Shown: positions 18,328-61,401 of the stretch, piece by piece
Layout: every line of letters begins with the position of its first letter
Position numbering within the stretch: the stretch's first letter is position 1
Origin: Nemertoderma westbladi
Taxonomy: Eukaryota > Animalia > Xenacoelomorpha
Assembly: GCA_032718475.1 (NCBI GenBank)
Contig: JAUCBJ010008837.1
Location: forward strand, 21,638 to 85,637
Direction of reading: 5' to 3'
Length of the DNA: 64,000 bases
Position numbers and translations under genes: made by a program
Notes under the pieces: generated by a model
What the model was told of the DNA's origin: nothing
Database searches by the model: none
The model's input: the letters and a program-made list of their open reading frames with translations, nothing else

Positions 18328-18329
18328 GT

Positions 18330-20889: not shown

Positions 20890-20992
20890 CTTCGAGTTGA
20901 CAGTTGAGGTAAGTTGTCGTTGTCGTCGTCGTCGTCGTAACTAGGTACCGGTACTAGAAAGAGTATCTTTAAATTGAATAGGTACCGTAAGC

Positions 20993-21256: not shown

Positions 21257-21641
21257 CGTCTTTGACTATGAATATCAGCACATACCCCTAATCTTTTCTC
21301 ACTGAGCTTAGCGTTGCCTGCTGTATACTCGCACACTCATAAGTAACAGATGCGCTATTGTGGCTCACTCGTGAGCAACAATGCCAAGTTAGCTAGCCGC
21401 GGCTGCTGAGTATACTATGCCTACTTGAGTGTTACAAGAAACAATCTCGCTACTGAAGTTAATTTCCCTCCTCAAACTAGTTGTTGATTTTAAAAAAATA
21501 TTCATAAATTTCTTCTCCCTTCAATTTAATATATATATTTTACAGTAAAAATCTCCACCACCAAACAGCAACAACAATAAATTTCATTCGTACTAATTAT
21601 ATTTTACATCAAAAACTCCCACACCAAACAATAATAAATTA

Positions 21642-26177: not shown

Positions 26178-26361
26178 GTTGAAGTTTATTTAGATAAATA
26201 ATAATAATAATAAAATATCTCCAAAAAATTAAAATAAAATGAAATGAAATGAAATTGACTACATCTAAACATTTATATGCTAGCGAGGGAAATAATTTTA
26301 AACCAATCACCAATCGCTTATGACTATTGGAAACCGCAAAGAGTTTAACTTATGATTAGGT

Positions 26362-27429: not shown

Positions 27430-27489
27430 AATAATAATAAATACGAAAAATATTACAAGTGATAAATTTTAAACCGTATCGCTGTAATA

Positions 27490-27780
27490 AATTGACACCA
27501 TAGTTCTCACTCTAAAATTGTGTTTGGTCGGAAAACGACGCCAGAGAAAAATGATGCTGAGTTCGACATTAGGTATCGACACAAAAACAAAGATTGGGCG
27601 AGACACGTAGCTCAGATTTTCGTTTTTGAGTCGATACCCAATGCTGGAATCAGTATCATTTTATGCGGTGTCGTTTTCCGACCAACGAATATACAACGCG
27701 TAAGATAATGTATGAATTATTAAGGAAAAAAAACACAATGTCAGAGTGAGAACAAAAAAATTAGATATGGTATCAATATA
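27490..27780. repeat. Imperfect palindrome / MITE-like foldback inside the Maverick
   Basis: TTGGTCGGAAAACGACGCC pairs with GGTGTCGTTTTCCGACCAA; inner arms pair too; outer GTTCTCACTCT pairs with AGAGTGAGAAC. Confidence 0.75.
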
Positions 27781-28115
27781 TTACCATGAAGAAGATTACA
27801 AGTGATGAATTTTATTAAAAACATTCACTTATATATATAAAAATTTGCGATGTGGCATAGTCAACGAAGAAGAGATGGTACGTGTCATAATCATCAACGA
27901 ATAAGAAAAGAGATGGGGAGCAACGTGGATGAATAGCTGGTTGGTTGATTGCGTGGATAGGAAATACGTGAAAGAATATGAATCATAGGGTTGTGTGTGT
28001 GCGTGTGTGTGTAATAATCAATAATTATTATAATAAAAAACGCACAGTATAATGTTAGTGGTGGAAGCCTTTCAATATGGCACAGATGCTGCGGGATCGG
28101 TTAGCTTGAGTAACT

Positions 28116-28630
28116 ACTATGGAAATATTCGTATACGTGTAGCTAGAACGTGGCGAAATTTCAACACGTATCATAATAGCGTTGGGGTAGGCAGGCCGCT
28201 TGGTTGGTTGGATTGATTGGTTTGGCGACAGCCGTCGAAGAGTAGCCGTGCGTGGCTAGCGACGGTGGTGGTGGTGGTGGTGAGTTGGCAATCGATTCGA
28301 TATAATAGCGTAGTGGGGGCTAGCCATGCGATGAGAAGTTAGGTTACGCGAAGATGAATATGCGATGGTTGGTTGATGCAACGACGCGAATCAATACTCA
28401 CGGGTGGTAACAGTTGTCGAGTAAGGTAGGCATCGCGAGGTTAGGCTACGCGTAGGTGATAAGCAACAATTGGTTGAAGGCAACGACGCGAATCAATATT
28501 GATGGTGACAGATGGTCATTAAACACCGCGATTTAGCACCGGAATTTGGCATTTTTTAATTGCCTCCGAGATGCGAGCCGTAGCCCAAGCTAGGGAGGAG
28601 ATATGGAGGAACTATGCTTCTCCTACTACT
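28116..28630 (-). repeat. Right TIR of the Maverick
   Basis: Reverse complement of 9911-10425, ends ACTACT followed by TSD CCTATT. Confidence 0.95.
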
Positions 28631-31394: not shown

Positions 31395-34300
31395 TTATTT
31401 ATTATCCCTACAATCTTCACAAAACCGTAATTCTGAATCCGGTTCACCTTCTAACCCAACACAATGAAAATGGAACCATTCTAAACAACCATCGCACCCA
31501 ACCATTGATGGTCCTTCGTCAAACCATGGAATACCGCATATGGGGCACGGTAAAACATCTGTTTCACCATCAAAAGGTGGATTTTCCGTGCTGCGTGCAG
31601 CATCTACTTCACGTCCTAATACTGCGTCAGTCGGTCGTGGAGTAATGGTTTCATTTGTGTGTAGTGATGGTAAGTAAGGACCTACTCGCAATCTGACGTC
31701 ATCTCGACTTATCGTTTTCGTTTTAGAATCTCTCATTCCACCAATTTTAACATTCTTTGAGTCCAATTCTACAACTCTAAATGGTCCAGAAAACTTTGGA
31801 GCAAGTTTCCTATCTGTCCCGGTTAAATCACTGTGATGTCTACACCACACGAGATCACCAACTTTAATTAGTTCGTCACGTACATTCTTATTATAATTTC
31901 GTTTCTGTGTCAACTGTGCTCTGCCTATGTATTCCTTCGCCAATTTCCAAATCTCCGTCATCTGTTCTCCTATTATCTGGGCTCGCTCATCAGGTTTAAT
32001 GTTATTTGATGTCCTTATAATCAAGTTATCTACGGGACGTCTAGCTTCATAACCATGTAATGTATAAAAAGGTGTTTGGTTCGTCAACGTGTGAATTGTA
32101 TTATTATATGCAAATTGCGTCATTAATAACAATTCGTCCCAATTCCTCGACTTGTGATCTGTCAATGTCCGTAAGAGTCTAATGACAGTCTGAATAGTCC
32201 GTTCAGCCAACCCATCAGCCTGTGGATGGTATGGGACTGTAAATGTCTTCAATGATCTACATCGTTTCGTAATTTCATCTATTAACGTCGACCTAAAATT
32301 CGGTCCTTGATCTGATAATAATAATTCTGGTGCACCAAATCTCAACACAATTCGATTAATAAATAACTCGTTCAAATGGGCGATCTACTTGAATAGATTC
32401 CATCTCATATTTATTTCGAATATCTCTACACGTAGCACAAATATGACAACTCTTATAAAATTTATCAACATTGCTATACATGCCTCTCCAATAATAAAAT
32501 CGAAGCATTGTATTGTACATCTTGGTGGTCGCAAAATGACCAGCTGAACAATTTTTGTGATATGCCTCTAGTAACACTGTCCGTAAACAACGTGGTACAA
32601 CTGTAAGCAAATCAACTTTAAGTTGCCCTTTTACATGTTGTTTATAATAAAGCACATCATCATGTAATTCGTAAAACTGTGCTTCAGCTGTGATACGATA
32701 ACATTCTTTCTTATTTTCAGGTAAAATACCGTCACTTAAATATATCATTAAAGGTTTGAGTTCAACATCTTGCAACTGTTTAATTCCTATATCTACCTTT
32801 AATGGCACTGTTTCTAGAACATTGATTTCTACACTATCTACACACACCTCTGAATCTACTTCTCGTTGTATGGTCTCTATGGGACACTTGCCAAATTCTT
32901 TATCTGGACAACACAATGGCGCCAATCTACTCATAGCATCAGCGTCTTTGTGTTTTGCACCTGGGCGATATCTAATTTCACAATTAAATTGTGTTAACCA
33001 CATCGCCCATCGCGCTAATCTACCTTCTAAATGTTTTGCAGTTAATAAATAAGTTAATGCACTATGATCAGTATAAACAATAAATCTGCGTCCATACAAA
33101 TAAGGACGGAAATGTTTTACAGCCCAAATAATGTTGATACAAGACAATGTTGATGCAAATGACTGATACCATAATTTACTTCGCTTCCATGCAACACTCG
33201 TGAAGCATATGCCACTGGTTGCGGTTTATTATTACTGTTCAATTGAGCTAAAATTGCTCCTAGTCCTGTATGACATGCATCTGTGTGTAAATAAAAATCA
33301 TTATCAAAATCGGGGTGAATCAAACAAGGAGTGTTCGTAAGTGCTTGTTTGATATCAATAAATGCACTCTGCTGTGCAGAACCCCACACAAAAGTAGTAC
33401 TGTTTTTCATTAATTCAGTCATCGGTCGTAATCTATGAGCACAATGTGGTATGTAAATACGGTAATATGAGGCTAAACCTGTAAAACAACGCACATCCTT
33501 TTTACACTTAGGTTCGCTCAAATCTAACAATTTTTGCACAGTTTCAATATCTGGTTGCCTTCCATTAATATCTACAGTATGACCCAAATACGTAATTCGA
33601 GACATTATAAAATAGCATTTCTTTAACTTCAACTTAATACCAATACGACCTAGGGCTTGCAATACCTCATCTAATCGATGGTTATGCTCAGAAATCGTAT
33701 AAGCCCATACTAAAATGTCATCTAAATAAACTAAACAAGTAATAAATTGTAACCCTGTTAAAGCTGTGTCCATCACACGCTGCCATGTCGGGGGCGCGTT
33801 TATTAATCCAAACGGCATACGTTTGAATTGATATGACCCTTTGTGAGTTGCAAACGCCGTCTTACATCGATCTTGAGGTGCCATCTCTACTGTCCAATAC
33901 GCCGAATATGCATCTAAAACCGTAAAATACATTCGTTTCGAATCATGCGGGGAAGAACCAATACAATCCATTAAATCGTTTATTGACGGAAGGGGATAAA
34001 CATCTTTCCGAGTTACAGCATTTAATGGTCGATAATCGATGCAAAATCTGAGATTGCCATCCTTCTTTAACGCAAATACCGTTTGAAACTGCCATGGACT
34101 CGCTGCCGGCTCGATAACATCTTGCTCGAGCATTGCGTTTATGTGTTTTTCAACCATGGGCCATTGTGACCTTGGTGTCCGAATCCCCTTTATTTGTATG
34201 GGTTTACTATTTCCAGTATCTATATGATGTTGGACTCTATGAATACGACCTAAATCAAGATCATCCTGAGCAAATATATTTGCGTTGCTATACAACAGCT

Positions 34301-36258
34301 TCTTCACATTTTCTTTCTCATCTTCAGTTGCTCCACTGTCTATCTGTAACTTTGAGTTAAATTCTTCTTCTGTCCATGGTTCTCTGTACTTATTATCTTC
34401 CTCGACTGGACATGACATTACATTATAGTCATCTTCATCTTCATCAAGTAAAACTTCATCACCAGTATTTATGTAATTTACTTCCCCCAATTTTGTATGT
34501 TTATTTATTGTCACTGGAACTGACAAAGGATTTAATAATTGAATAGGAATTCGAAAGTGTTCATCTGGAATCGATATTGATCGTGCTGCAGCTATGGAGT
34601 GTCGTTTAGTAAGTTTGTTAGCCTGTTCAAATAAAACTGCATTATAATTAATTTCAGGCATTGTGTCAAGTTGCCCTGTAACCAACATTCGACTTCGAGC
34701 AGGAATCGTAACTATTTCATTACACCAAACAGTAGCAATTTCGGACTCACCAATTGATCTAGTTATCATCTCTGCTGGTATTTGTTTACCATCTATGTAA
34801 ACAGCTATATCATCAGGATTAGTCAAATCCATCATACACCTAAATCCTGCCATTAAATCTAATCCAATCAAAATGTCATATTTACAATATGAGTCAAGTA
34901 ATAGATCAACTTCATGAGTTATATCACCTAATTTCAATGGAACTGTAACCACACCTGCAATGTCTAAAGGATGACCTGAAGCAGACTTTGGTGCAAAGGG
35001 TGGTTGCCCCATCTTAAATTTACTCTTCTTTTTCTTCTGTAACTTATAAAGTACTGATTTCTGCATTAGTGAAATTTCACTTCTACTGTCTATTAGAGCT
35101 TTGAATGTATTTCCTTGTATTTCGATAGAAACTACAGCCCGTCTGAGATATTGCCCAGCGAATCTACTTCCATTAGCTTTACTGTTATCAACCGAAATTC
35201 TGGCAGAATCTGCCTCTGTTGCTTTGATTTGTTCTTCCTTAATTTCACGGAAATCATCTTTATGTATTTTCAAATCATCCTGACCAACTTGAACTAAATT
35301 ACATTTCACATGTTTATTATCCGTACTATTAACATTACTAAATGAATTTCTATTTGTATCTCTCAGTTTAGTATCATCACTGCTACTATTTTTCCATTTT
35401 CCTTGTGTACAATCTTTAGCTTTATGGCCTGTTTTCTGGCATTTATAACATAATGTAGGTGCTCTACAATCTTTAATTTGGTGGTTAGTTCTTCCACAAT
35501 TATAGCAAGCATTATTATTTTGTGACACTGACTGCATTCTTGGGTATTGAACATCTAATTCATATGCCTGTTGTAATAAATCTTTCCAAGAAGATCCAAC
35601 ATTAATTCGTCGCCAACCTCTTAAACGCCCACTTATTTCATTTCGCACATTTCCAGCAAACAAATCTTGGAAAATTTCTTGTTCACCATCACCACTATGA
35701 TCCTCACGTCGCCGCCGAACTGCAATCATAAAACGCTCTACAAATTCTGGTATTGTTTCATTTAAACCTTGCTTACATTGTGCAATGTCTGCTACCAGAA
35801 CAACATTGGTACAACATTACGTTTATGATCTCCTAAAATTTGAATAATAGCCCTCTTCATACTTTCATAATCTATTCTATCTCTGGGTTCTAAAGTTTCA
35901 TCTAACATTGAATGTAATCTACCTATTTTAACTAGAAGTCTATTCTTTCTTTCTTCCATTGGTACTTGCGAATCTATCATTATTCGCTCATAATATTCAC
36001 TAAACCAATCCTGGATGCTCATCTTTTTAGGATCAAAAGGAGGTATTTGCTCTGTTAACTTCGTAGAACGACTTGCCAAAGAACCCGTTGGTGCCTCATC
36101 TGATCCAGGACCACCATCATCTCGACGACTTCTCGACAAGTTTAGCATCTGCTCATCTCTAGCATCAGCTCGTCTGCATCTATCCTCCTCTCATTGATGA
36201 ATTTCTGCCATCATTGTAGAGAACATTTGATTTTGTTGCGTCATCATAGAATTAAACA
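31395..36258 (-). pseudogene. Gypsy gag-pol: zinc knuckles, protease, RT, RNase H, integrase with C-terminal PHD finger; disrupted
   Basis: CYNCGRTNHQIKDC, CYKCQKTGHKAKDC, ALIDSR (DSG mutated), YLDD, TDAC, HHCC, SDQG, AERTIQT, GPFRV, PHD. Breaks near 36194, 35790, 33130 and 32360. Confidence 0.92.
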
Positions 36259-36264
36259 TTCGTA

Positions 36265-36700
36265 AGTAGTAGGGTCTTGGCCGGCTCTGCGACAGTTAGA
36301 CCTAACTGACACCCATTGGGTGTCATATGACACCCAATTATCACCCTATGGGTGTCATTGGGTGTCATTGGCGCCAGACTGTCTGGGTGACACCTCCCAA
36401 TTAGGCTAATTAGACCCTAATTGACAGGTGTCATCAATTAATTAGTACAATTAAACCCTAACAGGTGTCATATGACTCCTAATTAGGGTTTATTTGATTA
36501 TCCTAATTAATCAGACTGATTAGCGCCCTGACACACAATGGGTCATCAGTGATGTCTAACTGTCGCAGAGCCGGCTCAAGAGGGTGTCATAAGTGACACC
36601 GCAGCTCTTTTATTCATTAATACTTATTTATTTATATTTAATTTTAATTAATTGTATTCTATTTTACTTTATTTTATATTAATTATTCATTTGTACTTTA
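36265..36700 (+). repeat. Left TIR (~430 bp, imperfect) rich in TGACACC/GGTGTCA palindromes
   Basis: Reverse complement of about 50845-51279; further patchy similarity between 36990-37160 and 50730-50870. Confidence 0.88.
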
Positions 36701-37287
36701 TGGGTATACAGCTCCCTTACTGGTAACTAATTACTCTTATCTATATCCAGACAGCTTTATCGTTGACCTTTGACCTTTGACCCCCCAATTAGCTTTAACC
36801 AAGCAACAGCATATTAATGATAGTTGTATCCAAGCGCCCCTGCCCCCCCACCCCGTGACAGCTCTGATTACTAATTACTCTTACATATATCCAACCGCCT
36901 GCAGTTCCATAGTCTGCCGCTAGAGGGCGTATTATCTGAAAATTAACATCTTCTCTAACTTTGTTATTTTCAATTTAACTATTTATTTATATTTAATTTT
37001 AATTAATTAATTGTACTTTATTTTACTTTATTTATTCATTTGTAGTTTATTTTAAATTAATTAATTGTATTCTATTTTACTTTATATAATGATTTCTATT
37101 TTTAGATGAATTTGGTTTTAAATTGCCAATGAGATCACTATGACATAATGTCTATTTTTAGCTCTATGGTTTATAGATCCCTTATCGTTAACTTTATAAT
37201 CTTTCCTCTCGTGGCCCCTTTGTCTTCGTTATTCAATGGCGCCATTCTGTCTACCATTGAATAACATTGGGCAATCATTATCTCGCC

Positions 37288-37392
37288 TGATGTGACGTCA
37301 TCAAAGCTGCTCTCTGATTGGTTTAATTATACAGTCTTTTCTCCCTCCTGTTCCCTGATTGGCTAACCCATTCTAGCCCCCTCTATAATAGC
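37288..37392 (+). promoter_or_regulatory. Pol II-type promoter: CRE (TGACGTCA), two inverted CCAAT boxes (CTGATTGG), TATAAT
   Basis: Motifs upstream of the ATG at 37510. Confidence 0.55.
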
Positions 37393-37509
37393 CCCCGTTC
37401 ACCACATTCCCAATCATTGTCTCTTTGTTTTCCTGAAAAGTTTTAATTATTTTCGTAAAAGTATTTATTTATTTTTATTTCCTAAACGAGTTACCGGTAC
37501 ACAATCACG

Positions 37510-39201
37510 ATGGCACATTCAGAAATCAGCTATTCAAGCAACGATCTGGTTTGCAACGAAAATCAGTTTATGCTACAAGACAACTCGTTTGGTCTATATT
37601 TCGATTCGGCGAACAAACTCTTCCCGTTAACGATAAATACAACCTTAAACCAACCCATCCCGATTCCGGCAAACTACGCGCACTTTATTTTCCGCGCCTG
37701 CTACGAACTTCACGATGGACAATATCAAACCCTCGACGATAATAAACTTCATTCCTCCAACCACGGTTTCAAACTTTTAAAAAGGGACAACAAAATCACG
37801 TTCAATCTAACTACTTCGCCCGAGACGTTTACGATTCCAACTAGTATAGTCGATTTTATTCGAGAAAACATCAACCAAGATGTGGCAAATCGTCTACTGG
37901 GTTTAACCACCCTCGTAACCTCCTTCTTCTCCGATGATCGCTTATTTGATTTTCATAGTATCGCAAACTCGATTCTTCTTCTCATCTGGAACTCGTCGAC
38001 TCCGACCGAGGAAGAGGAGACTCGTTTCTTTAAACTTTTCGACAAGGATGTTCTCACTTTCGGCGAGAAATTGAATGAGCTCACATGCTTTTTCGCCAAT
38101 AAAGTCTCCTATTACTTTGGATTCAATTATAGAGTTGGCACCTATGGAAGTATTAACCCAGTGAATCCACTCGAGTTAATAAAGCTGGAAGACACTGTAA
38201 ACAGTTCATGGATCACATTTTCCGTCACCTGCGCCAATTTATTTCAACAATATGTAAACATCTGTCGCCCTTTTATTAATCCTACTACTCACCTTGTCCT
38301 AAAACCGGGAATTTGGGTTGCTTTTGACTATTGCACTTTTGGGTTTGTTACAAATATTCGGAACGAGCGCAATTTAGCGATCACCAATGGCTACGAGGTT
38401 GACGATGGAAAGGCTATTGTTTCTTCTAGGGGCATGATTCTTCTTACACCAACCGAGGTCGGCGAATTGAAATGGTTCGATTCAACCGTCGAGGATAGTG
38501 AATGTGTCTGCTACGATGAACTTAACGTATACAAAGACAACATTTCCGAGCGAATATCGATACAAAGTTGTATCAGCGATTCAGAAATTGATTTACAGAT
38601 AACCGAGAGAAAATTTAACGAATCCTTTACTATAGCTAACACGATTCAAGCGCGCGAGGCTCTAATCAGATTCAAGGCTATGGCTATACAATTTGCTTTC
38701 AAACCAAAGCAGATTACGATCCCCAATCACCAACGCTATCTCATAAATAGCAGTATCGCAGCCTTTATCTATAAGTTCAAATCCGAAAAATATGTTGGTA
38801 TCTGGCCCATTTTAATGAAAGACGAAGAGAATACCACTTTTCAGTTCACCAACGGTCTCAATATTAGGGGCAGCGATTTTCTCGCGATAAATATAACCAA
38901 CCCACCCAACTCTCACTACTATCTCAGTCCTTACATTCATATCGAGAACAAACCAGCAGAAATTATATTCACCAATACGAAAAATACCAACACTATCACC
39001 CTATCCAACGACTTTACCATCGCGCGCCTTTTCAAATTACTAAAACGTTCTCTCAGAGAAGGCATATTTCTCCCGCAGCAAACACACCTTAATCTATTTC
39101 ACCCCCCAAGAAAAGGTTATCTCAACAAACTATTAAAGAGAAAATTATCGCAACCATTAATAGTATCGGACCCTAAAAGGGTTAAACCAGTTATTCTCTG
39201 A
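37510..39201 (+). CDS. 563-aa protein with two or more PC4-like repeats
   Basis: FGFVTNIRNERNLAI...SRGMILLTPTEVGEL and AAFIYKFKSEKYVGIW...NGLNIRGSDFLAI; C-terminal NLS-like PKRVK. Confidence 0.65.
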   Translation: MAHSEISYSSNDLVCNENQFMLQDNSFGLYFDSANKLFPLTINTTLNQPIPIPANYAHFIFRACYELHDGQYQTLDDNKLHSSNHGFKLLKRDNKITFNLTTSPETFTIPTSIVDFIRENINQDVANRLLGLTTLVTSFFSDDRLFDFHSIANSILLLIWNSSTPTEEEETRFFKLFDKDVLTFGEKLNELTCFFANKVSYYFGFNYRVGTYGSINPVNPLELIKLEDTVNSSWITFSVTCANLFQQYVNICRPFINPTTHLVLKPGIWVAFDYCTFGFVTNIRNERNLAITNGYEVDDGKAIVSSRGMILLTPTEVGELKWFDSTVEDSECVCYDELNVYKDNISERISIQSCISDSEIDLQITERKFNESFTIANTIQAREALIRFKAMAIQFAFKPKQITIPNHQRYLINSSIAAFIYKFKSEKYVGIWPILMKDEENTTFQFTNGLNIRGSDFLAINITNPPNSHYYLSPYIHIENKPAEIIFTNTKNTNTITLSNDFTIARLFKLLKRSLREGIFLPQQTHLNLFHPPRKGYLNKLLKRKLSQPLIVSDPKRVKPVIL

Positions 39202-40359
39202 GACCAGCAACCCTATTAATATAAACAGTCTCTATTTAATAAAAACTGTTCTCACTATATCTTTTGTTATTGTCGATGTTCTTATATTATTTATTTTCAA
39301 TGTTGTTGGTAAATTATTTATCTGTTGTTATATTATTTAATATTGATGTTGTCGGTAAATTATTTATTCTTGTTTCCCCATATTGTTTAAAAAATATAAG
39401 ATGCTTAACCGGCTATTTTTCATTTTTCTCTACTAGTTAATCTATTCTATGAGAGCGAGCCATGAAGTAAGTGAGTCTCAGCATACCATTAATGACCCCT
39501 ACTGCTTCTTCGTAATCAATTTGAATGTTAACCCCTAAATAAACAGCCAATCCCTATGAATTCTTTACAAACTCGATATGCAAGTTGTTTATCAGAGCTG
39601 ATTTTAATTAAAATATATTATTTAGCGATTTTCGTGATTAATGCTATAAATTATATTCACCAAAATGAAAATATCCACCCTATTACTCTATCCATCAAGC
39701 GATGCTTTGTATGTATTGATGGCGAGCAAAGTTTTCAGGGCGACCACCTCTAGGCTGTAAGTACGCTGTTCTGTCCTATCATAGACACTCTGTCTTTTAG
39801 ATGCTTCACTGTTAATATTAAGCCGTTAGCCATGGCGCCGCTGATAAGCCGCGAGGATATTCAAAGGCTTTGGTTTGATTGTTCGTACTATGGATAGTTC
39901 AATGAAATCATGAAAGGGAGGGCCGCATGGGGTTGAAAGTGATAGCCCCTCATCCTTATTTTCCCGAGAAATTCTTAAAGGCGACTATGAATAGAACAAT
40001 GAAACATTAAAGGGAGGACCGCATATGATGGGAATGATAGCCTTTCAACTGCCTTTGCCCAGATTTGTGTAAGTTCGAGGGAGGATGTAGAGGAAAATAT
40101 ACTCGTAGCTTTAATGCCCCATTTGATTAAAGTAGAGCAAATTTAGCTTTCACCTAAGGGTTATCACTCCTTGCAACTGCAAAATTTAAAATTCTATCTA
40201 TGATGTATTCACTATATTTCGTTTGCTGACATTATTTCATCGCGAAATTAAAAGCATCTGCTATCACTATTATTATAGTATATTATCTAAACTAGTGACA
40301 CCGAGTTGGAACAGATAGGATAATTGCACTTTGTTATGTTTTAGTTTAGTAGCTTTAAT

Positions 40360-41012
40360 CATAATACTACCAGGCTATAAAATGTTGTATAAATATCGGG
40401 GGGAGGGTCATAATGACCCCGGTCGAGGTGGGGAATCGAATCTATGACAATCTGTATATCCTATTTTGTGTTTACTTTTTATATTTTCCACGAAGCGAGG
40501 GCAAAAATTTAAATTTCCTGAAAATTTCTGAGTCTCAGCACACCATTAATGATCCCTATGCCTTTTTCGTAGTCAATTTGAATGATAATCCCTAAATCCC
40601 TATATTTTTCATAAAAACCCTCAAAACTTTACAAATTTTGAAAAATCGGCTAATATAAAATGCCCCATAGTTTCAATAAAAATGGTACTCGAAATGTGAA
40701 TACAATGCTTCCACTTCATCAAGGTGAAACCTTAACGAAAACTATCCTGATCCACACTCGATTTGTAAATACATTGCATCCACTTTTACCCAGATGGAGC
40801 ATTTGTATTGTATTTAAGATTTATTTTCATGAGTCACATAATAACCCCAATACTACCGGCCTATAAAATATTGTATAAATATTGGGGGGAGGGTCATAAT
40901 GACTCTGGTCGAGATAGGGAATCAAATCTATGACAATCTGTATATCCTATTTTGTGTTTACTTTTTATTTTTTCCGTGAAGCGACCAAAATTTAAAATTC
41001 CTGAAAATTTCG
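40360..41012. repeat. Two ~165-bp direct repeats (about 40360-40530 and 40848-41012), each with a minus-strand tRNA T-arm-like unit
   Basis: Shared GGGGGAGGGTCATAATGAC...GAATC.AATCTATGACAATCTGTATATCCTATTTTGTGTTTAC. Confidence 0.75.
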
Positions 41013-41495
41013 CGGATAGAGAATATAAATATAATTGGTGAGCATAGTGCTACGCGAAGGCTCCATGGCAGATGTATTTTAGCTATGGACTCGTATATCC
41101 ATTCTACTCTACTATAGCCAGACTGTCTTCGAGGTGCCCCGTTAGCCTTGGCGCCGCTAAATCTGCATGAGGGTCGGCCGGCAAGCGAGATATCTCTATT
41201 GCTAATAAGCTTGAGGGCCCAAATAAGGCTAACATTCATATGCTATATCCCATAGTTATTACCGATATATAATTACTACTGGCTCCTAACGACTTATCAC
41301 TGGGAGCCCTTTAATTAAAGCCGCCGCTCGTTGAAACTGTTGCGTTGCTCCCTCTGCGCTGATGCTATATAAACCGAGACGGGGCCTTCATTCGTCACCA
41401 GTTTTGAGTTCGAAAAATTTTATGTGATTTATTCTACATTTTAAACTTTTGCGTTTACAATTTTAAACTTGTTAATTTACCAATTAATCAATACC

Positions 41496-41921
41496 ATGGA
41501 TTCCACCTCCAACACCCAGCTAGCTGCCCCCGTGGCATCGGTCTCCATCACCACCACAGCTACATCCATCACCACTGCTTCCAACGCTATCAACACAACC
41601 ATGACCAGAAGCGTTGGTACACAGACCATGGAGAGCAGGTCGGAAGCGGCCACTCCCTATGGCCGTTTTATGAGGGATCAGGAAGAGGAGATGGCCTGGG
41701 AGGAGGATTTGGTTAATCGAGAGCTCGAGATTCGAGCATTGGAGGAAGCGCGTGTGGAAGGGCTTCGGACCTCCTCCAACTGGTACGACCAGTATTTGTA
41801 CCAGGAATATGTTCTGAAAGAGAAAGCAGCGGCTGAGGAACAGCGTTTCCTTCACCCTTTTCCCCAGGAAAACTGGGAGGAAACAGAGGATTTTAGGGAG
41901 GAACCATGGTGTAAGTTTTAA
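41496..41921 (+). CDS. Hypothetical protein: Ser/Thr-rich N-terminus, acidic/aromatic C-terminus
   Basis: TATATAAA at about 41367, Kozak-like ACCATGG, GC-richer than its flanks. Confidence 0.6.
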   Translation: MDSTSNTQLAAPVASVSITTTATSITTASNAINTTMTRSVGTQTMESRSEAATPYGRFMRDQEEEMAWEEDLVNRELEIRALEEARVEGLRTSSNWYDQYLYQEYVLKEKAAAEEQRFLHPFPQENWEETEDFREEPWCKF

Positions 41922-42119
41922 TTAATACTAACATTCCTTTATATAATATGATATAATAAAATAGGTTAAAGCAATATGCAGTTTGAATAGAAATTAATTT
42001 GAGTAATTACAATAATTTTAACGTTATAAGAATGACCAAGATGGCTATAAAGCAATTACTTAAATAATAAATTATTATTTAATTATAAAATAAATTATTT
42101 ATTTTCTCATAGGCTAAAT

Positions 42120-42614
42120 TTGCGTGAGGACCGGCCGGCGAGCGAGATTGGGAGCGCAGTTGTCCCTTACAGTTACTCCTTACAGTATTTGCCTATGTCG
42201 AACCATCTGAAATTCCTCGGACACAAACTGGGAAATTCTAACCCCGCTAGCAACCTCCACAATGTTATCCAGACAATAGCCATGATGTCGCAAGTTTTCC
42301 ATACCAAAGGATGGACAGCAAGGTGGCTCAACCTAGAGACCATCTTTAAGATGTGGAACACACTCACCGTCCCTGTCATAATCTACAGATTAACTCTGAC
42401 TATTGGATCCCTACGCCGAAAGGATATCGACAAACTCGACGCCTACCACCGCAAGGTGCAACGTAGCCTCTTACTTCCTGGGAACTATCTGGAGAATAAT
42501 ACACTCTATCTACTCTCAGGGACCCCACCATTATCGATCATTGCCTATCGGAGTTGCTATAGAACCTTAGTTAGAACACTTGATTGCCCTAGTCTCGAGC
42601 TACAGTTACCTTAA
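42120..42614 (+). pseudogene. Divergent fragment resembling the C-terminal (thumb) region of a LINE reverse transcriptase
   Basis: LKFLG...PVIIY...KLDAYHRKVQRSLL...NNTLY...TPPLS parallels FQYLG...SVFLYG...RIDGCYTRLLR...NAELY..IPPVS in the RTE element at 54480-59310. Confidence 0.55.
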
Positions 42615-43267
42615 TTATAAATGTATTTACCCCCACATTATTTATTACTATTAGGTCTATCTATTCAAGAAATTATATGTTTTTATAATATACTTTGGAA
42701 AATTAGTCGACTAAGTCATAATTTTTAAAACTTTAAATACGGGTTGAGTTATTTTATAAAGTTAAGAAGAATGAACCAATAGAGGGAGCCTGAAGTCTAA
42801 TCTCTTGGTCTTTACTCACATTAACTCCCAAGGTTGCATACTATCACTATAGCCGGGGGAGTCAAAGCTAGAGTGTATGCTAGAGTTAACCAAGAGCTAG
42901 GAAAAAGAATAATGCTCTTCTAGGGTCCAAACTCACATCCCTCCAATTAGAGAACTAAGCAAATGATCAGCTTGAAGGTCTTAGACCCTTAATCGGAGGC
43001 ATCGAGCAGCCAATGAGAGAGCAGATGCGAGTACAGTGGTAAAGCCCATCCATAGTGAGATAGCGTTGCACTAGCTCTCAAGGATAGTTATACTCATCAT
43101 TCAAATATCCCTCGCAAACCAGATTCCCCCAACATCTAAAGTAATCCACTTCATTGTAAAATATATAATGCAATATAACTCGAATATTTCTGTTTTTATA
43201 ATATAAATAATAATTGTTACATAAATTTATAATTTAACATGTAAATATAAGGTGAAAATTCACTTTA

Positions 43268-44070
43268 ACATAGAGTAACTAAACTAAACACAAAATAGGA
43301 AAAACAGAAGGTCACGGGCTCAATCCCTACTCATATCCAGTTTTATGGAAAATAAACAGGAGGTCATAGGTTCAATCCCTACTCGCGACCATTATAAATC
43401 CAACACAAAATAAGTTAAACCAGGGTTCGAATCCTAATCATGAAAATATAAAAAGTAAACATAGAATAACTAGAGTAACTAAACTAAACATAAATTAGGA
43501 AAAACAGAAGGTCACGGGTTCAATCCCTACTCGCGACCATTATAAATCCAACACAAAATAAGTTAACCAGGGTTCGAATCCTAATCATGAAAATATAAAA
43601 AGTAAACATAGAATAACTAGAGTACCTAAACTAAACACAAAATAGGAAAAACAGAAGGTCATGGGCTCAATCCCTACTCGTATCCCGTTTTATGGAAAAT
43701 AAACAGGAGGTCATAGGTTCAATCCCTACTCGCGACCATTATAAATCCAACACAAAATAAGATAAACCAGGGTTCGAATCCTAATCATGAAAATATAAAA
43801 AGTAAACATAGAATAATTAGAGTACCTAAACTAAACACAAAATAGGAAAAATATATGCTCGCAGGTTCGATCCCTAGTCGTATCCCGTTTTATGGAAAAT
43901 AAACAGAAGGTCACGGGTTCAAGCCCTACTCGCGACCATTATAAAACCAATACAAAATAAGTTAAACCAGGGTTCGAGTCCTACTAATGCAATTATAAAA
44001 AGTAGGTAACACGGATGGTCACGGATTCAAACCCTACTCACGGAAAAATAAAAACCAACACAAAATAAAT
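43268..44070 (+). repeat. Tandem array of about 12 tRNA T-arm/B-box-like motifs
   Basis: Units such as GAAGGTCACGGGTTCAATCCCTACTCGCGACCA and CCAGGGTTCGAATCCT at roughly 50-90 bp spacing; higher-order period about 150-200 bp. Confidence 0.85.
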
Positions 44071-44107
44071 AATATAGTAAACTTTCATGTATACCATAGT
44101 AAATAAA

Positions 44108-44614
44108 CTAATTTAATAATAAAGTTTGTAAAATAGATAATGATTCGGGGAATTCACCGGCTGGACACATGGAAACGATTTTATTACTATGAAATACACT
44201 GAAATATGCACGTCCTTTATATATTCTAATCGCGCAAAATAATTCGGGGGTATAGCTAATAAATATTGCTTTATTATTAATTGTATGATGTCCACATTTT
44301 TTCATTAATAATTTAAAATTAACACTTGGAAAAATAATAGTTCGTGTTTCGGTATTAAGTTTCAAATTTTGTAATTGCATCCCGATAGTTTGTTTTAAAT
44401 AAAGCAATTCACTAGCTAAATTATTGCACAGGCCTACAATTGTTACTGCGCCGCTGGGAAATAGCATTATAGTTGAATCGTCACCTTTGTAGATAAACAT
44501 GTTTGGTTTTAAGCTACTTTGACCTGTAATTTGCTGTGAAATTTTATCTAGTTCAAATTTGGCAATGTTTTTTCCGGTAAACTGTTTATTGGTTATTTCT
44601 ATTTTGTTGTTCAA
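44108..44614 (-). CDS. TBP-like protein (uninterrupted frame, no ATG at the 5' end)
   Basis: Two-repeat layout: IEITN..FT....FEL..I...KPNMFIY...STIMLFPSGAVTIVG and LNT.T..I...VNFK.L...SYTPELFCAIRI...YFSVFHSNKIVSM, versus TBP TTALIFSSGKMVCTG and SYEPELFPGLIYR...LLIFVSGKVVLTG. Confidence 0.8.
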   Translation of the reverse strand: MNNKIEITNKQFTGKNIAKFELDKISQQITGQSSLKPNMFIYKGDDSTIMLFPSGAVTIVGLCNNLASELLYLKQTIGMQLQNLKLNTETRTIIFPSVNFKLLMKKCGHHTINNKAIFISYTPELFCAIRIYKGRAYFSVFHSNKIVSMCPAGEFPESLSILQTLLLN

Positions 44615-44637
44615 TTTCTTATTCTAGAAAAATAAAA

Positions 44638-47600
44638 TTAAATCCTAGTAGGGGGGATTACTACTCGTTTCGCCGGTCTAACAAGCTTAGTGCTATAGTG
44701 TCCGTATGGTTTGCTGCTATATTTACTACTCCAATATGATTTCGTATCCCAGAGCGTTAGTGCCTTCTTATAGACATGACCAGTAAAAATTTGATGCTTT
44801 CTAGAAGTGAAGGTAGAGTTATAGCGGAAGAGCATTGCCTCGTTTTCAAAACAGTCTGCATAATCCTCGTGTGTTAGTTGCTTAGCGACAACCGATCTAG
44901 ATACACCTTTGGCGGTTTTCTTGATTGGGGCATCGTAGGATTGAAAACTGTAGACCTTTGGTTTAAGGAAAACCCACTGTTTATACTGCAAACCGCAGCT
45001 CTCATCTTTTACGAAGCCGAGAGCCGCTTTGTGTTTAATGGTATAGAGTGGATGTGTTGTACTGTAGTTGGAAGTATCTAGGAAACCACCCTCAAACATT
45101 GCCCGTAGAAAGGTTAGCTGTGGTGTATTAGTTACGCTTAGCATTAGAGAATCCGTGTCACCGGCTAGACAGCGAATCTGGCAATCCAGTTTTTGTTCTA
45201 GAGGCTTCAGTTTGTTGTAAAATAGGTCGTACATCTGTAGCTTAGATAGATCTAGTATAGTGCAACCGATGAACACGCCCTGATTTAGGCAAACAGCCTC
45301 TTTAGTGAAAGTATGACCACTCAAGTTGGGGGTAAATACAACAAACGATTCGTGATTGGGCTTGGCTAAGAGCAAATCGCATTGTTCGTCGCTATTGCAT
45401 AACCTGAAAGAAACGCGGTCTCTAACCTTTTGGAGGCATTTCCCATACAAGGCATTGTTCATCAACTTATAAAATAGGACCTCGAATGGGTTATTTGCCG
45501 ACTGTCTTTTATTTGTATTAAAACTAATGTAGTCCTTGAAAATATATTTTTGCGAGAAAGAGTAGACCCTATGTACTTGTGTAAGTTTAAGACCGAGCTT
45601 CAAATAGAGTTGAAGTAGCTTAATATGGATACCGTATTCAACCTTATTAAACTGATGTAGTAGTAGCTTAGTACAGGTATCGTTGTATGGTCTACAGGTA
45701 GCCTTATCGGTGAGATTGTAATGCTCCCAAAGATCTTCCATGTATTCGCTAAGAAAGGATTTAGGGACTGACATCTTCTCCGCTCCTAGAGGCAGATCGG
45801 CGGTCAAATCATGAATTTCTTTCGGATAATGTAGATCAACTATGCAATAATAACCAGTATCCCCACTCGCGTCTACTGTAGCTAGGTCTATGGGGGTAGT
45901 TACGAGTTTAATATTAGCGTAGGGAAGTTTCTGGCTCAGGGCGCAGCCGTAAAGGTTATTCGCATCGATGGGAATTAGATATTTCTCGGGGAGACTGGAG
46001 TTGTAGTCGGGTTTATCGGGAATATTTGCGTCTACGGAATGCGTATTCAAGAAAACTAGACCACCCCTAATATTTGTTTCAAAGTCTGAGTAGATGGAAG
46101 CGTCTGATAGTAATTGAATTTCTGATTGCGTGAATTTCAGCGCCGCGTCGTAAGTTAATCCAGGGGCAGTGAAGTACATTACGGGCTCGAGTCCATAATT
46201 AGTAAGACAGAGGGATCGGAACTGCTCGAAAGTATCAGCCAATAGGGTAACGTCTAGAACCAAATAGCCAATCATATAGTCGAAGATTGTTGTGCAGTTT
46301 AATTCATCCCAAGTAGTAAGCGCGCGCTGATAGTTGTCTGCGCTACATTGTTCCAATTTGAGATCATTATAGAAGCTTTCTATTGGGGGGAGTGTAGTTT
46401 CGTATAGGTTTGAAATATTTTGAATGTAGGAATATGGGAATACGCCCTTGTTTTTTATTATGTTATCGCTAATGATAGGATAGAGTCGGGTCATTTGAGC
46501 TAGTGTATGGGGTATGGCTGTTGCTAGGTTACTGTTATTTTTAGTGAGATAGCTACTAAGATTATCTAGGCTGGCAGTCATAAACTGATAGGAATCTAGA
46601 AAATTAATGGAGATACTTTCTTTAGCGTTGGCTGTTGGTGTACTCGGATCGATTGGGAAGCTAACTTTAAGGTGAATATAAGTTTCGGTGTTTTTTGGTA
46701 TTACGGTCATTTTCCAGTGTGTTCTAGAACTATCGGTCATTCCTTCTTTTAGTAGTAAATGCATATCGAATTTCCTCAGGTTATGAAATATAATATAAAA
46801 ATTATTCCGTTTTAGGGAAAGTTTCCTGTTGCAGCTGACGCAAGCAGCCCCCCGATACTCCCCGCTATAATGATCGTGATCGCGGACTTTGGTGCTGAGA
46901 TTGTCATTGAGGTTTAAATTATGAGAATCGGGGGTTAAATTACAGTTGCAGACGTAGCATTGTGTAGCGTTATTAAAGTCAGTTTGTTGGCTAGTAGTGA
47001 GTTGCATGGGGGCGTGCGTGTTTGTACTAAAAATGGACCAATCGTATAACTCCCTACAATGACTTTCCATAGCGGTTAGAAAGTCGCGCATTACGTGGTT
47101 ACTGCCATCGTCGCGGAAAATTTGAACATCTGTTTTAGGAGGGTTAATTAATTTCTGATTTGCTACTGTATAAAAGGCTGCCGCGCTAGCTATATGTTTC
47201 TGTGGGAGTTTAATATTGTTTGTAGGTTCTAGAATAGTTTCAATGTCGGCGTATATACAGAAAGGCGGGGATAGAGTCTTATCATACCTATCAAATTTAA
47301 CCAAGAGATTTTCGGGCATATACTCGAGTTGGCGTTTACCCGTATAGCAACGCTCTCGATGTTCTTCCAATGATTTGTCAGTGTAAAAGCCTCTGAGACA
47401 GCGTTCGCAGTGCGTCTTCTTACCGTTAGAATCTTTTGAATTTATTAATCTATCTATGTTAGTAATAGCTACGTAGTGGGCGGGGTTTTTGCTTGTGGCT
47501 TCGATAAATAATAAGTTTAGTACAGTTTTACCGGAACAGTGCGCGCTATCTGGTTGACTTAGAATGGAGAGTTCTTCCGTATTACTCCAATAAAGAAGGT

Positions 47601-48690
47601 TTATACAGTATATAGGGTTGGCTTTCAGAAACTGGGGAATACCAGTTACTCTGTCCACCGGAAAACTTAAATTCGAAAAATCAAACATGTTTAGGAAAGG
47701 AGTAAACGTTGAAATTCTACTAATATTATTTTTTTTTCTATCAATTTTCTTATAATTTGCGGCGGCCAATACTGCGTATTTAAAGCATTCCCCCAGCGGG
47801 CAGTCTACGCTTACGGTACATTTTTTATTTAATAATAATTTAGAATTATTGAACCCTTGACCCTTTAAATAGGGGTTGCGTTGGGACCGCGCAATCTCAA
47901 TAGTTATTCGCTCGATGGCTATTATGCGCCAACCCGAGCCGAGGCAGAGAAACACGCTTAACAGTTGATCGATACGATTGACGGCGCCAGAAAACCAGTT
48001 ATTAAAGTCGCTATTATTCAGAATTTGATTATTGTTACCGCTAGATTTAAAACAGAATGATTCAATTTGAAATCCCTCGCTGGTTTCACGCTCCATTACG
48101 ATGTTGATTGTAAGCCAGACTCTTAAAAAAGTTCCCATGGCACTACGTAAATGGCTACTAACGTGTTCTTGAATGTGTGGAAAATTTTCATTTAATGTTA
48201 ATTCTGCGTCGAGTCTTGTTTCTGCGAGGTCGTTGTTATAGGTAAACAGTCGTCCGTGTGCGCTTCCGTTAGAGGGTGGTTGAAATGGATTGTTTGGGGA
48301 AATAGAATCTCGCGAAGTTGAAGGTTCATTATTGGAGCCGCCGCCGCCGACTTGTTCTGGAGTAGAGTTGATGGGGGATGAGTGGGAGGTAGTCGGAGTT
48401 TTGCGTTTCCGCGAAAAAAGTCGAGTATAGCATTCATGCTCAGTAAAGGATGACAGGGTGAGCGAATCCCCGCAGCGGCAATCGGCTGGCTCGTTTACGT
48501 AACTAAATCCTGTTCCCCCCTGAGGACACGAAACAAGATGGCCAACCAGTGTCTTCTTTTCCGAAGACCAAGTCGGGCAACAGTCGCATCGATATTGCGC
48601 GAAATGAATTTTAATGTGGCGAGATAAATGATCACTCCGTGTCTCTTTGTCGCAGATGGGACAGCTAACTTTATTGCTAGACATAGGCAT
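44638..48690 (-). CDS. Protein-primed family B DNA polymerase (intact, 1350 aa)
   Basis: N-terminal Zn fingers, YADIET, endonuclease VII-like DHDHYSG..RGAAC..CN, FHNLRKFD, KGVFPY, DANNLYG, KLMNNALYGK, GDTDS. Confidence 0.96.
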   Translation of the reverse strand: MPMSSNKVSCPICDKETRSDHLSRHIKIHFAQYRCDCCPTWSSEKKTLVGHLVSCPQGGTGFSYVNEPADCRCGDSLTLSSFTEHECYTRLFSRKRKTPTTSHSSPINSTPEQVGGGGSNNEPSTSRDSISPNNPFQPPSNGSAHGRLFTYNNDLAETRLDAELTLNENFPHIQEHVSSHLRSAMGTFLRVWLTINIVMERETSEGFQIESFCFKSSGNNNQILNNSDFNNWFSGAVNRIDQLLSVFLCLGSGWRIIAIERITIEIARSQRNPYLKGQGFNNSKLLLNKKCTVSVDCPLGECFKYAVLAAANYKKIDRKKNNISRISTFTPFLNMFDFSNLSFPVDRVTGIPQFLKANPIYCINLLYWSNTEELSILSQPDSAHCSGKTVLNLLFIEATSKNPAHYVAITNIDRLINSKDSNGKKTHCERCLRGFYTDKSLEEHRERCYTGKRQLEYMPENLLVKFDRYDKTLSPPFCIYADIETILEPTNNIKLPQKHIASAAAFYTVANQKLINPPKTDVQIFRDDGSNHVMRDFLTAMESHCRELYDWSIFSTNTHAPMQLTTSQQTDFNNATQCYVCNCNLTPDSHNLNLNDNLSTKVRDHDHYSGEYRGAACVSCNRKLSLKRNNFYIIFHNLRKFDMHLLLKEGMTDSSRTHWKMTVIPKNTETYIHLKVSFPIDPSTPTANAKESISINFLDSYQFMTASLDNLSSYLTKNNSNLATAIPHTLAQMTRLYPIISDNIIKNKGVFPYSYIQNISNLYETTLPPIESFYNDLKLEQCSADNYQRALTTWDELNCTTIFDYMIGYLVLDVTLLADTFEQFRSLCLTNYGLEPVMYFTAPGLTYDAALKFTQSEIQLLSDASIYSDFETNIRGGLVFLNTHSVDANIPDKPDYNSSLPEKYLIPIDANNLYGCALSQKLPYANIKLVTTPIDLATVDASGDTGYYCIVDLHYPKEIHDLTADLPLGAEKMSVPKSFLSEYMEDLWEHYNLTDKATCRPYNDTCTKLLLHQFNKVEYGIHIKLLQLYLKLGLKLTQVHRVYSFSQKYIFKDYISFNTNKRQSANNPFEVLFYKLMNNALYGKCLQKVRDRVSFRLCNSDEQCDLLLAKPNHESFVVFTPNLSGHTFTKEAVCLNQGVFIGCTILDLSKLQMYDLFYNKLKPLEQKLDCQIRCLAGDTDSLMLSVTNTPQLTFLRAMFEGGFLDTSNYSTTHPLYTIKHKAALGFVKDESCGLQYKQWVFLKPKVYSFQSYDAPIKKTAKGVSRSVVAKQLTHEDYADCFENEAMLFRYNSTFTSRKHQIFTGHVYKKALTLWDTKSYWSSKYSSKPYGHYSTKLVRPAKRVVIPPTRI

Positions 48691-49200
48691 CTTGAATCTA
48701 GAAAAATAAGTTGATTATTCATAAAAAAAAAAATAAAAAATACTGTATACTTGCTAAAAATAAAGTAAAACAGTAGGTATTAATCGGTTACTAGGCAACA
48801 ATACTGTGTTTGTACAGTTAGGCCTATTGCTGTATTGTAACAATCAGTCGGTGAAACATAAAGCAGGCAGTCGGCAGTATCTAGTGTGGAAGTGTTAGTG
48901 TACCAGCGGTTAGATAGTGGCGATAGCCAAGACACAATAGCGATGGCAGTTATTATTCGTGGAAAGAGGGTCTATAAACAGCAGTCAGTCAGTGCAGTAG
49001 TGCTAGTGATATAGTCTGCTATAAGTGATAAGTCAGATGTACCGATAGCGTTAACCAATACAAATCAACGATAGGCCTAGCTAATCGCTGTGTGAGAACT
49101 CAGTTAGTCAGTAGGATATATAGTGAAAACTGCAGTAATCATTGTTGTTCAGTAGGATCTAGGCTAACTCGAATGATGCGGTACCGATAGTCAGGTAGAC

Positions 49201-49997
49201 AAGCAGATAGACAGATGTAGGCCTATTGATCGAATGCTTCGATCACGGTTTAGGCTATCGGTATCACCGCAGTCTGACAGTAATTAATAATGAGCCTACT
49301 GCAATACTGTTGTACCGGTAGACATTAAAGGTAAATTGTTTGCTAGCGGCGTCGATAGTACCGTCAGATGGTGGAAGGCAGATTTTACTTACGGTGTTAG
49401 TAAATATTCACGGAAAGAGGAAGTTCGTGAAGAAGTTGGTTGACATGGCCGACGAGAGAATTTATCAACCGATGGAACGGAATGGTATCGGAAATTAGAA
49501 ATATTACGCGGCGGATACGCGGAAAGTTTGTTGTCGACGATGAGTGATAGCGCGGCGAAATGATACTAGAAAAATAAGTTGATTATTTGTAAAAAGATAA
49601 AAAATAATGTAAGCAGATAGGCGGATGTAGGCCTAATGATCGAATGCTTCGATCACGGTTTAGGCTATCGGTACCACCGCAGTCTGACAGTAATTAATAA
49701 TGAGCTTACTGCAATACTGTTGTACCGGTAGACATTAAATGTAAATTGTTTGCTAGCGGCATCGATAGTACCGTCAGATGGTGGAAGGCAGATTTTACTT
49801 ACGGTGTTAGTAAATATTCACGGAAAGAAGAAGTTTGGAAGTTCGATGGCGATGAGGAAGTTGGTTGACGTGGACGACGAGAGAATTTATCAACCGATAG
49901 AACGGAATGGTATCGGAAATTAGAAATATTGAAATATTACGCGTCGGATACGCGGAAAGTTTGTTGTCGACGATGAGCGATAACGCGGCGAAATGAC
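49201..49997. repeat. Tandem duplication of ~410 bp upstream of pPolB
   Basis: 49201-49562 is repeated at 49611-49997. Confidence 0.88.
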
Positions 49998-50844
49998 AAT
50001 AATACAACTATACAACTGGATAGTTGACTGACGATAACAAATAAATATTCTTAAATAAATAATATTAAATTCGAAAACAAAATAATGGTAAATGATGTTA
50101 ATCGTAACTTGCAATTGAAATAATGACCTAATATATTGGTGGGGACGTATTAAATAGCAATTCGGTTAGTAAGGGAGGCCCTTGTCTCTTAAATGAGCCA
50201 ATCAGAACGCAGCAGTAGAAATGAAGCCCGCTGATTGGCTGTTCGCGCAAAAGCGGTTACCAGGGCAACTTCTCGTGTTGATGTATCTATTAGAAAACTC
50301 TTGTAAGCATCTTGACTAATTATGTTGAGTTGGCTGTATAACAGAAGCAGGTCTGGTGCAAAGGAAAGGGATTAGTAGAGAGGAATGCGTGATTAGTGGC
50401 GCTTCATTGTTATGATACGGGCTGCCTGGATATAGGAAAGGACCCGAGTGATGCCGGTTATAGTGGGAACAATGGAGGGCCGCTTGAGCATTAGCCTTGG
50501 GCGATATACGGATTTGCTGTAGTCAAGGCCGCGATGGGATTATTAGTGAGTCAACGAAGGGGCTGCTAATAGACGGGACCGCTCATTTATATTTGCCTTG
50601 GGGGTATACGTGTAGATTCACGGCCTGTCGTATCTAGTTAATGAATAATGAGGACAGAGGAGGGGCCCCCCACCGATGAACGCAGTTGATAGTTGCCAGT
50701 AGGGAGCCGTATACCATAGCCATTATAAAGTTAAAAATAGACATTATGTCATAGTGATCTCGTTGGTAATATAAAAACTAATTAATCTAAAAATAGAAAT
50801 CAATGTATAAAGTAAAAGCAATATATACAATTAATTAATTTAAA

Positions 50845-51279
50845 ATAAAGTACAAATGAATAAATAAAGTAAAATAAAATAGAATACAAATAATTAATTA
50901 AAATTAAATATAAATAAATAAGTATTAATGAATAAAAGAGCTGCGGTGTCACTTATGACACCCTCTTGCTCCTCTCTGCGACAGTTAGACAACACTGATG
51001 ACCCATTGTGTGTCGGGGCGCTAATCAGTCTGATTAATTAGGATAATCAATTAAACCCTAATTAGGAGTCATATGACACCTGTTAGGGTTTAATTGTACT
51101 AATTAATTGATGACACCTGTCAATTAGGGTCTAATTAGCCTAATTGGGAGGTGTCAGCCAGACAGTCTGGCGCCAATGACACCCAATGACACCCATAGGG
51201 TGATAATTGGGTGTCATATGACACCCAATGGGTGTCAGTGGGGTCTAACTGTCGCAGAGAGGACCAAGACCCTACTACT
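50845..51279 (-). repeat. Right TIR of the capsid-less pPolB element
   Basis: Ends ACTACT followed by TSD TTCGTA. Confidence 0.88.
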
Positions 51280-51610
51280 TTCGTAACATCATGTTGGACT
51301 GCTTATCTTCACCTACTGCCATATCATCAGCTTCCCCGGACTCATATTCATCGTCGTCCTTGCCGGTTCCGCCAACTGCTCCATGCTCATTGTCCCTTCG
51401 TTTTGGCATCTTTTTATTTTTTTTAACAGATTCCTGATTTTTATTAGCTATCTCTACTTCTTTATGATAAACGTCCCTTACATGTTTAGGAGTCTGCCTA
51501 GTTATCCTACATTTCCAATCCAGATTTACATTAGTGAATTTATCTGCAGTCACTTTAGCGCTTACCTTCTTTTAACCTTCTAACTTCATACAGCAATTCG
51601 CCATACCTGT

Positions 51611-61392: not shown

Positions 61393-61401
61393 TATGGATA
61401 T

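Follow-up and report, generated by a model that had tools for sequence, protein, structure and literature searches.

A tandem B-box array in a Polinton-like element of Nemertoderma westbladi as a candidate landing site for host TFIIIC

A tandem array of 12 B-box monomers of ~53 bp lies on the plus strand at positions 43268-44070 of the stretch of Nemertoderma westbladi DNA analysed here (64,000 nucleotides, hereafter the window). The array sits inside a mobile element that resembles Polintons, at the point where the two sets of genes of this element converge. Judging from its sequence, we propose that the array may be a landing site for host TFIIIC and may form a barrier of the extra-TFIIIC type between converging transcription units, a reading to which we give somewhat less than an even chance. 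An earlier note on this DNA had taken the motifs for a TFIIIC landing array or a source of small Pol III RNAs, possibly working with the adjacent TBP-like protein. This interpretation holds in part, and the Polinton-like carrier had gone unrecognised there.

The array and its carrier

Twelve B-box motifs were found between 43317 and 44034, all on the plus strand, of which nine match GGTTCRANNCC exactly and three carry a single mismatch; the earlier note had counted about 12. They start at 43317, 43369, 43424, 43517, 43571, 43664, 43716, 43771, 43864, 43916, 43971 and 44024. A motif scan returned a single further exact match in the 64 kb, which belongs to a sister copy of the element (position 49, minus strand), and a 30-mer quoted in that note occurs exactly once, at 43510-43539. 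In 1000 dinucleotide shuffles of 43268-44070, exact B boxes appeared 0.005 times on average and once at most; however, the 12 motifs are tandem copies of one ~53-bp monomer and thus dependent, so that this comparison overstates the surprise. The spacings between successive monomers are 52, 55, 93, 54, 93, 52, 55, 93, 52, 55 and 53 bp, and the array shows tandem periods of 147 and 200 bp as higher-order repeats. A monomer profile run across the window recognised 15 units, namely the 12 of the array, one of the sister copy and two inverted ones, and all of these lie inside the element or its sister copy. The inverted copies, both of them weaker, are located on the minus strand at 40420-40469, with G53 changed, and at 40904-40956, with changes at G53 and at the invariant C56.

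The carrier spans 15,015 bp (36265-51279) with the ends AGTAGTAG..CTACTACT and is flanked by a 6-bp target-site duplication (36259-36264 and 51280-51285). Its left terminal inverted repeat (TIR; 36265-36701, plus strand) is ~435 bp long and 95% identical to the right one (50845-51279, minus strand). AG..CT ends and target duplications of 6 bp are characteristic of Polintons. Public contigs of the runs X1 and X2 contain the empty site, with a joint that skips 15,021 bases. The start of what looks like a Gypsy-like retrotransposon, labelled by eye from its open reading frames (ORFs), is interrupted by the element and occupies 31395-36258 and 51280 onward. On the minus strand, an open frame at 44638-48690 encodes a protein-primed family B DNA polymerase (PolB) of 1350 aa with exonuclease and polymerase motifs, which matches Pfam DNA_pol_B_2 with E=3.8e-18 and has 487 homologues at E<=1e-50. 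Relatives of this PolB, together with the retroelements of the window, point to an animal host. The element thus combines the protein-primed PolB, TIRs and 6-bp target duplication of a Polinton/Maverick. However, the own retroviral-type integrase and the virion genes of an autonomous Polinton were not found: no integrase was found in the ORF list or by Pfam, and the integrase of a neighbouring Polinton matches nothing inside the element; likewise, no protease or ATPase was detected, and the capsid-like ORF of the neighbour has no homologue inside. As judged from this gene content, the element is Polinton-like and probably non-autonomous, and has presumably been moved in trans.

An orphan ORF of 563 aa (37510-39201, plus strand) converges on the array and has no relatives in the databases searched. 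The neighbouring Polinton encodes a distant homologue of it (27168-26881 within an ORF at 26362-27429; 27% identity over 104 aa). Between its two copies in the window, 444 codons differ by 13 synonymous and 9 non-synonymous changes. A further plus-strand ORF of 150 aa (41469-41921) belongs to no family and lies in a segment missing from the sister copy. The 164-aa ORF at 42120-42614, taken by eye for a LINE fragment, matches neither Pfam nor the LINEs of the window, and this label was dropped.

The plus-strand ORFs and a minus-strand unit of PolB and a TBP-like gene converge on the array, which begins ~40 bp past the stop codon of the minus-strand unit. The final TBP-like codons overlap with an ATTAAA, behind which lies a GT-rich stretch, and the PolB/TBP mRNA is predicted from this to end just ahead of the array, near 44085; an AATAAA follows both plus-strand ORFs. 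An acceptor-like stretch precedes the PolB ATG (48690-48720) and is repeated upstream (49561-49607), and a pyrimidine tract ending in CTAG lies directly ahead of the TBP-like ORF (44614-44640). Transcripts of PolB and of the TBP-like gene may thus have a spliced leader in common. In contigs of the runs X2 and X4, joints across 44630-47857 mark deletion derivatives, which lack most of PolB and keep the TBP-like ORF beside the PolB start.

Two further elements of the window allow comparison. One is a sister copy on the minus strand, of which the window contains only the left part (1-5567); it is 92-98% identical to the main element over the three parts compared. The first array unit of this copy lies at 26-76, and the sister unit that the earlier note had placed at 1-70 was recovered with 92% identity over 66 nt; because the window begins at the sister array, this single unit is all that is visible of it. 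The cargo region differs between the copies (40195-42612 vs 752-1479), and the main copy carries there the 150-aa ORF, a 143-bp duplication that includes both inverted monomers and, next to these monomers, a palindrome. As a control, we used a neighbouring integrase-bearing Polinton (9911-28630) with 515-bp TIRs and a 6-bp target duplication. It encodes an integrase, an adenain-type protease and a weak match to an A32-type ATPase, its ORF at 17068-18327 is called capsid-like from size and position only, and its PolB coding sequence is divided between two reading frames. Its terminal octamer is common to both elements, and integrase could come in trans from this Polinton or from intact relatives of it. 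Within its 18,720 bp no B box (<=1 mismatch) was found; the lineage can therefore do without the array. A 58-bp satellite at 61399-64000, with ~41 copies up to the window end, is also free of B boxes.

Substitution pattern at the B-box positions

We aligned the 15 monomers, which were picked by motif from one genome window and owe their relatedness to recent duplication and probably also to gene conversion, built a tree from their flanks alone and counted the changes per column. Five changes fell into the eight fixed B-box columns, eight into the three degenerate ones (R57, N59, N60) and 82 into the 42 flank columns, yielding binomial P values of 0.01 for core versus degenerate and 0.003 for core versus flank positions. 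An ungapped count gave four changes in the 8 core, eight in the 3 degenerate and 45 in 21 flank columns. In a neutral simulation on the flank tree, which ignores motif selection and gene conversion, 15.8 core changes were expected instead of the five observed (P=0.0003 for 15 units). The P value remained at 0.0003 without the two inverted units (13 units) and was 0.015 when the type-c units were also dropped (9 units). The excess of conservation at B-box over linker positions that the earlier note had suggested looking for is thus present among the copies in the window. Five positions (G52, T55, A58, C61 and C62) never changed, and C56 is intact in all 12 array units. PMC4228148 gives the B-box consensus as GWTCRANNC, with an invariant C that governs TFIIIC affinity; 9 of the 12 units match this consensus and three miss it, and the tolerated changes follow it. 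As at an ETC site, the consensus with its invariant C stands where no tRNA or other known Pol III gene is found. This substitution pattern fits selection for TFIIIC binding.

In the reading we propose, the ~53-bp B-box monomer, amplified in tandem inside the integrase-less Polinton-like element, would let host TFIIIC land on the array DNA with no tRNA-like RNA being made. The bound TFIIIC would then act as a chromatin barrier or as a block to Pol II read-through at the junction of the two arms of the element, keeping the two transcription arms apart or shielding both from silencing. A precedent is given by the IR-L and IR-R elements of S. pombe, each of which has five B boxes that bind TFIIIC without Pol III (PMC7474672). 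The read-through block is the weaker step, because the yeast cases in PMC4228148 are whole tDNAs (7/7 read-through cases and 5/6 3' extensions). The landing array of the earlier note is favoured by changes that avoid the fixed B-box positions and fall on the degenerate ones, and by contigs that seldom continue from the region into foreign flanks. An insulator role, like our TFIIIC-barrier reading, is a proposal from the sequence of one lineage, and no second species with such an array was found. What we observe are the motifs, their tandem arrangement, the element, the pattern of changes and the TBP control, and what we infer from these data are the tRNA origin of the monomer, its binding of TFIIIC and the role of the array as a barrier.

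Alternatively, the array could be a neutral minisatellite, i.e., a captured tRNA or SINE-head fragment amplified by slippage and unequal exchange, whose B box seems conserved through homogenisation of a GC-rich core and the motif-based picking of units. The tandem structure, the variable unit order and the deletion joints are all in line with this, as are the match of the monomer profile to real tRNA T arms (E=1.4e-4), the wide occurrence of T-arm/B-box tandem repeats elsewhere and the neighbouring Polinton that has none. We nevertheless consider a neutral origin of the pattern somewhat unlikely. Within the 11-mer, the changes concentrate on the degenerate positions (eight in three columns vs five in eight, P=0.01), and the ungapped count still gives P=0.02 when R57 is left out. 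The CpG o/e is 0.92 in the window, so that CpG, not being depleted, does not explain R57 by its decay, and GC-majority flank columns change like other columns (2.06 per column). Moreover, no monomer has lost its box. The three 93-bp intervals contain no B-box match under 4 mismatches, and the one interval aligned carries a 29-bp insertion; this lack of decayed boxes in the long spacers makes it less of a concern that the count was confined to well-preserved units. Among the variant places of the array in public contigs, the 16 listed all lie outside the B boxes, which falls short of significance (P=0.057). In some copies, contig joints delete a type-c box or the greater part of the array, and the number of B boxes is therefore not fixed.

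The earlier note had named a tRNA-derived SINE head, amplified neutrally and genome-wide, as the case that would speak against its reading. An excess of B-box conservation is seen instead, and the share of contigs that run from the region into unlike sequence is low (0.02, 0.01, 0 and 0.05 in the four runs compared, which belong to three studies, although contigs break at repeats), which looks unlike a dispersed SINE. Tandem B-box repeats as such are not rare elsewhere, and B-box amplification needs no special function. A scan for spaced B boxes returned 12 stretches in viral contigs, 11 of which adjoin called tRNA genes, and 23 loci in metagenomes, mostly satellites or duplicated tRNA ends. 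Neither the DNA of the element nor 10 window proteins matched any of these 35 loci, and no PolB loci were found in the viral contigs. One case is a ~45-bp satellite in WLWD01 and WLWI01 contigs (loci L026, L033, L014, L020 and L025) in which nearly every unit has an exact B box, with 117 exact matches over 12 kb of L026. In phage tRNA clusters (L003, L004, L005, L007, L008, L010 and L012), a tRNA gene is followed directly by a second T-arm/acceptor fragment without a 5' half.

Likeness to tRNA and the TBP-like gene

The earlier note had described several units as tRNA 3' halves ending in ACCA, with no clear 5' halves or A boxes. The latter point was borne out, as no A box (<=1 mismatch) was found on either strand of the array, a box that a tRNA-derived SINE head would carry. 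Of the former, a resemblance remains: the five-pair T stem is complete in none of the 12 units (three to four of five pairs in 11 units and two in the last), and ACCA is out of register, beginning at tRNA position 71 (not 73) in four of them and at 82 in a fifth. Eukaryotic nuclear tRNA genes do not encode CCA. Lacking both the five-pair T stem and an acceptor end in register, by which a tRNA gene or half is recognised, the array is no set of tRNA halves. The tRNA search that the note had called for likewise came back empty, with no tRNA gene in the array by ARAGORN and no Rfam family at the gathering score (best E=9.6 in one search). Two A-box candidates were rejected: the one at 43029 does not stand out from the background, as the plus strand of the element has 29 such one-mismatch matches in all, and a TAG..AR at -46 from the type-a boxes lies in a local 29-bp insertion missing in the inverted unit. 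The monomer profile matches the T-arm regions of tRNAs in phage contigs with a best E=1.4e-4, and it is fair to infer from this match that the monomer derives from a tRNA or SINE head, comprising variable loop and T arm.

A further alternative is a cluster of Pol III genes run by host factors, in which TATA boxes would replace the A box, as in yeast U6, and drive short A-rich RNAs that terminate at the T4 runs or, as a variant, a longer transcript that covers the end of the TBP-like gene in antisense. Eight TATA-like boxes are located 23-24 bp past B-box starts on the same strand and alternate with the B boxes; TATAWAW on this strand occurs eight times in the whole array compared to a shuffle mean of 2.0 (P=0.0005), but its count per 200-bp unit (2 vs a mean of 0.53, P=0.11) is not significant. 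T4 runs are found on the plus strand at 43341, 43688 and 43888, each 24 nt past one of the three type-a B boxes and thus in the place of a tRNA terminator, and number three on this strand vs 25 on the minus strand. On the other hand, an A box is missing, two of the three type-a units have a degenerate box, and the type-a units fold no better than their shuffles (z of 0.9, 1.2 and 0.06). No 120-nt window over 42601-44160 had a folding z below -2.6; a short hairpin in a single hybrid unit reached z -3.0. We therefore regard such a Pol III cluster as unlikely. For the small Pol III RNAs of the earlier note, the TATA-like boxes and T4 runs exist, and the A box and the fold do not.

The TBP-like ORF next to the array (44108-44614, minus strand) encodes 168 aa counted from a TTG, with its first ATG at codon 39. 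It scores 23.9 bits against the Pfam TBP family (cut-off 22.9), and the Atlas search returned TBP in 30 of 30 matches with a top score of 0.95 at a low recognition value. Asn9, Phe40, Phe52, Phe126 and Phe141 sit in columns invariant among 30 archaeal TBPs and are presumably the DNA-contact positions. An alignment-guided model (pLDDT 76.8) matched solved TBPs in Foldseek, partly in a circular manner because TBPs made up the guiding alignment; a single-sequence model (pLDDT 38.6) was uninformative. Relatives were found neither by a word-indexed search nor among PDB sequences, plasmids or viral contigs, nor at E<=0.001 among 1.84 billion representatives. Judged by the two-repeat fold of TBP (PF00352) and the conserved Asn and Phe residues, the ORF is a real and very divergent TBP homologue.

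The neighbouring Polinton has a homologue of this gene directly after its PolB (~22133-21648, with one in-frame stop), and the two proteins share 30% identity over 163 residues (E=1.7e-14). As there are no B boxes in this Polinton, the pairing of PolB and TBP exists without the array. The TBP-like gene is thus probably an older module of this Polinton lineage, as far as the two sequences tell, and a neighbour of the array rather than its partner. This bears on the idea that the TBP of the element might occupy the TATA boxes and host TFIIIC the B boxes, forming a private TFIIIB-like complex, or that the array might serve as a decoy for host factors. The retained TBP fold and invariant residues and the alternation of B and TATA-like boxes beside the gene would suit such a partnership. 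However, the homologous gene of the neighbour follows its PolB with 0 B boxes in 18,720 bp, TBP genes are already listed among MELD virus genes in the Fig. 5 legend of PMC8502044, and the first ATG of the ORF comes only at codon 39. In addition, adjacency of gene and array is weak evidence because the protein acts in trans. The cooperation with the TBP-like protein that the earlier note had raised is weakened by these findings, and we consider the partnership decidedly improbable. The same slim chance is given to a private Pol III-type switch of host TFIIIC and element TBP where the two arms of the capsid-less Polinton meet.

That the core is the site of another protein, from the host or encoded by the element (e.g. 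the 563-aa orphan), and resembles a B box by chance is very improbable: constraint does extend beyond the box (C at position 48 is unchanged and several 3' columns change once), the type-c boxes are near-palindromic and match the B box on both strands, and the 7 bases past some boxes equal the element terminus, but the tolerated changes match the published B-box consensus position by position and the terminus match is frequent in ordinary tRNA T arms. A link of this 7-base match to replication was dropped, as identical letters follow ordinary T loops.

Relation to known systems

The array resembles the IR-L and IR-R elements of S. pombe and ETC sites in its clustered B boxes without a tRNA gene, and most yeast and human ETC sites have the B box alone (PMC7474672, PMC6950938 and PMC4228148). 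Like ETC sites, it borders Pol II genes or a domain edge. Unlike them, it is a 12-unit tandem minisatellite in a mobile element with interleaved TATA-like boxes, and its TFIIIC binding and boundary activity are putative. The carrier shares the protein-primed PolB and long TIRs with Polintons/Mavericks (adintoviruses) and MELD viruses (PMC8502044); in contrast to these, it has no integrase, protease, ATPase or homologue of the capsid-like ORF of the neighbour. MELD viruses carry tRNA genes (PMC8502044, Fig. 6 legend), and the passages of this article consulted mention no B-box array in Polintons or MELD viruses.

With tRNA-derived SINE heads and tRNA-fragment repeats, the array has in common the variable-loop-like AGGTC followed by T-arm/B-box sequence, and with the latter also the T-arm profile match and the similar tandem repeats in public contigs. 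Unlike SINE heads, it lacks an A box, a 5' half, a tail and per-unit target duplications, and it shows little sign of dispersal into foreign flanks. As in viral Pol III RNA genes such as that of adenovirus VA RNA, its B boxes belong to a protein-primed DNA virus-like genome; yet B box and T4 are the only features present of a VA-type Pol III RNA, and the A box, a stable long fold and an Rfam match are missing. In the portion of the literature covered, no such array linked Polintons with B boxes, TFIIIC or polymerase III. Each ingredient is known, and a B-box array within a Polinton-like element appears unreported in those sources.

B-box clusters serve as boundaries in fission yeast, and SINEs serve as TFIIIC sites in mammals. 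If TFIIIC does not bind, the array would be an ordinary tRNA-derived minisatellite. Its 12 natural variants form a small ready-made series for testing the importance of single B-box positions to the host. If TFIIIC binds, the array would represent a mobile, self-carried chromatin boundary, an insulator brought to each insertion site, and the Polinton-like element would spread TFIIIC clusters through the genome of its host.
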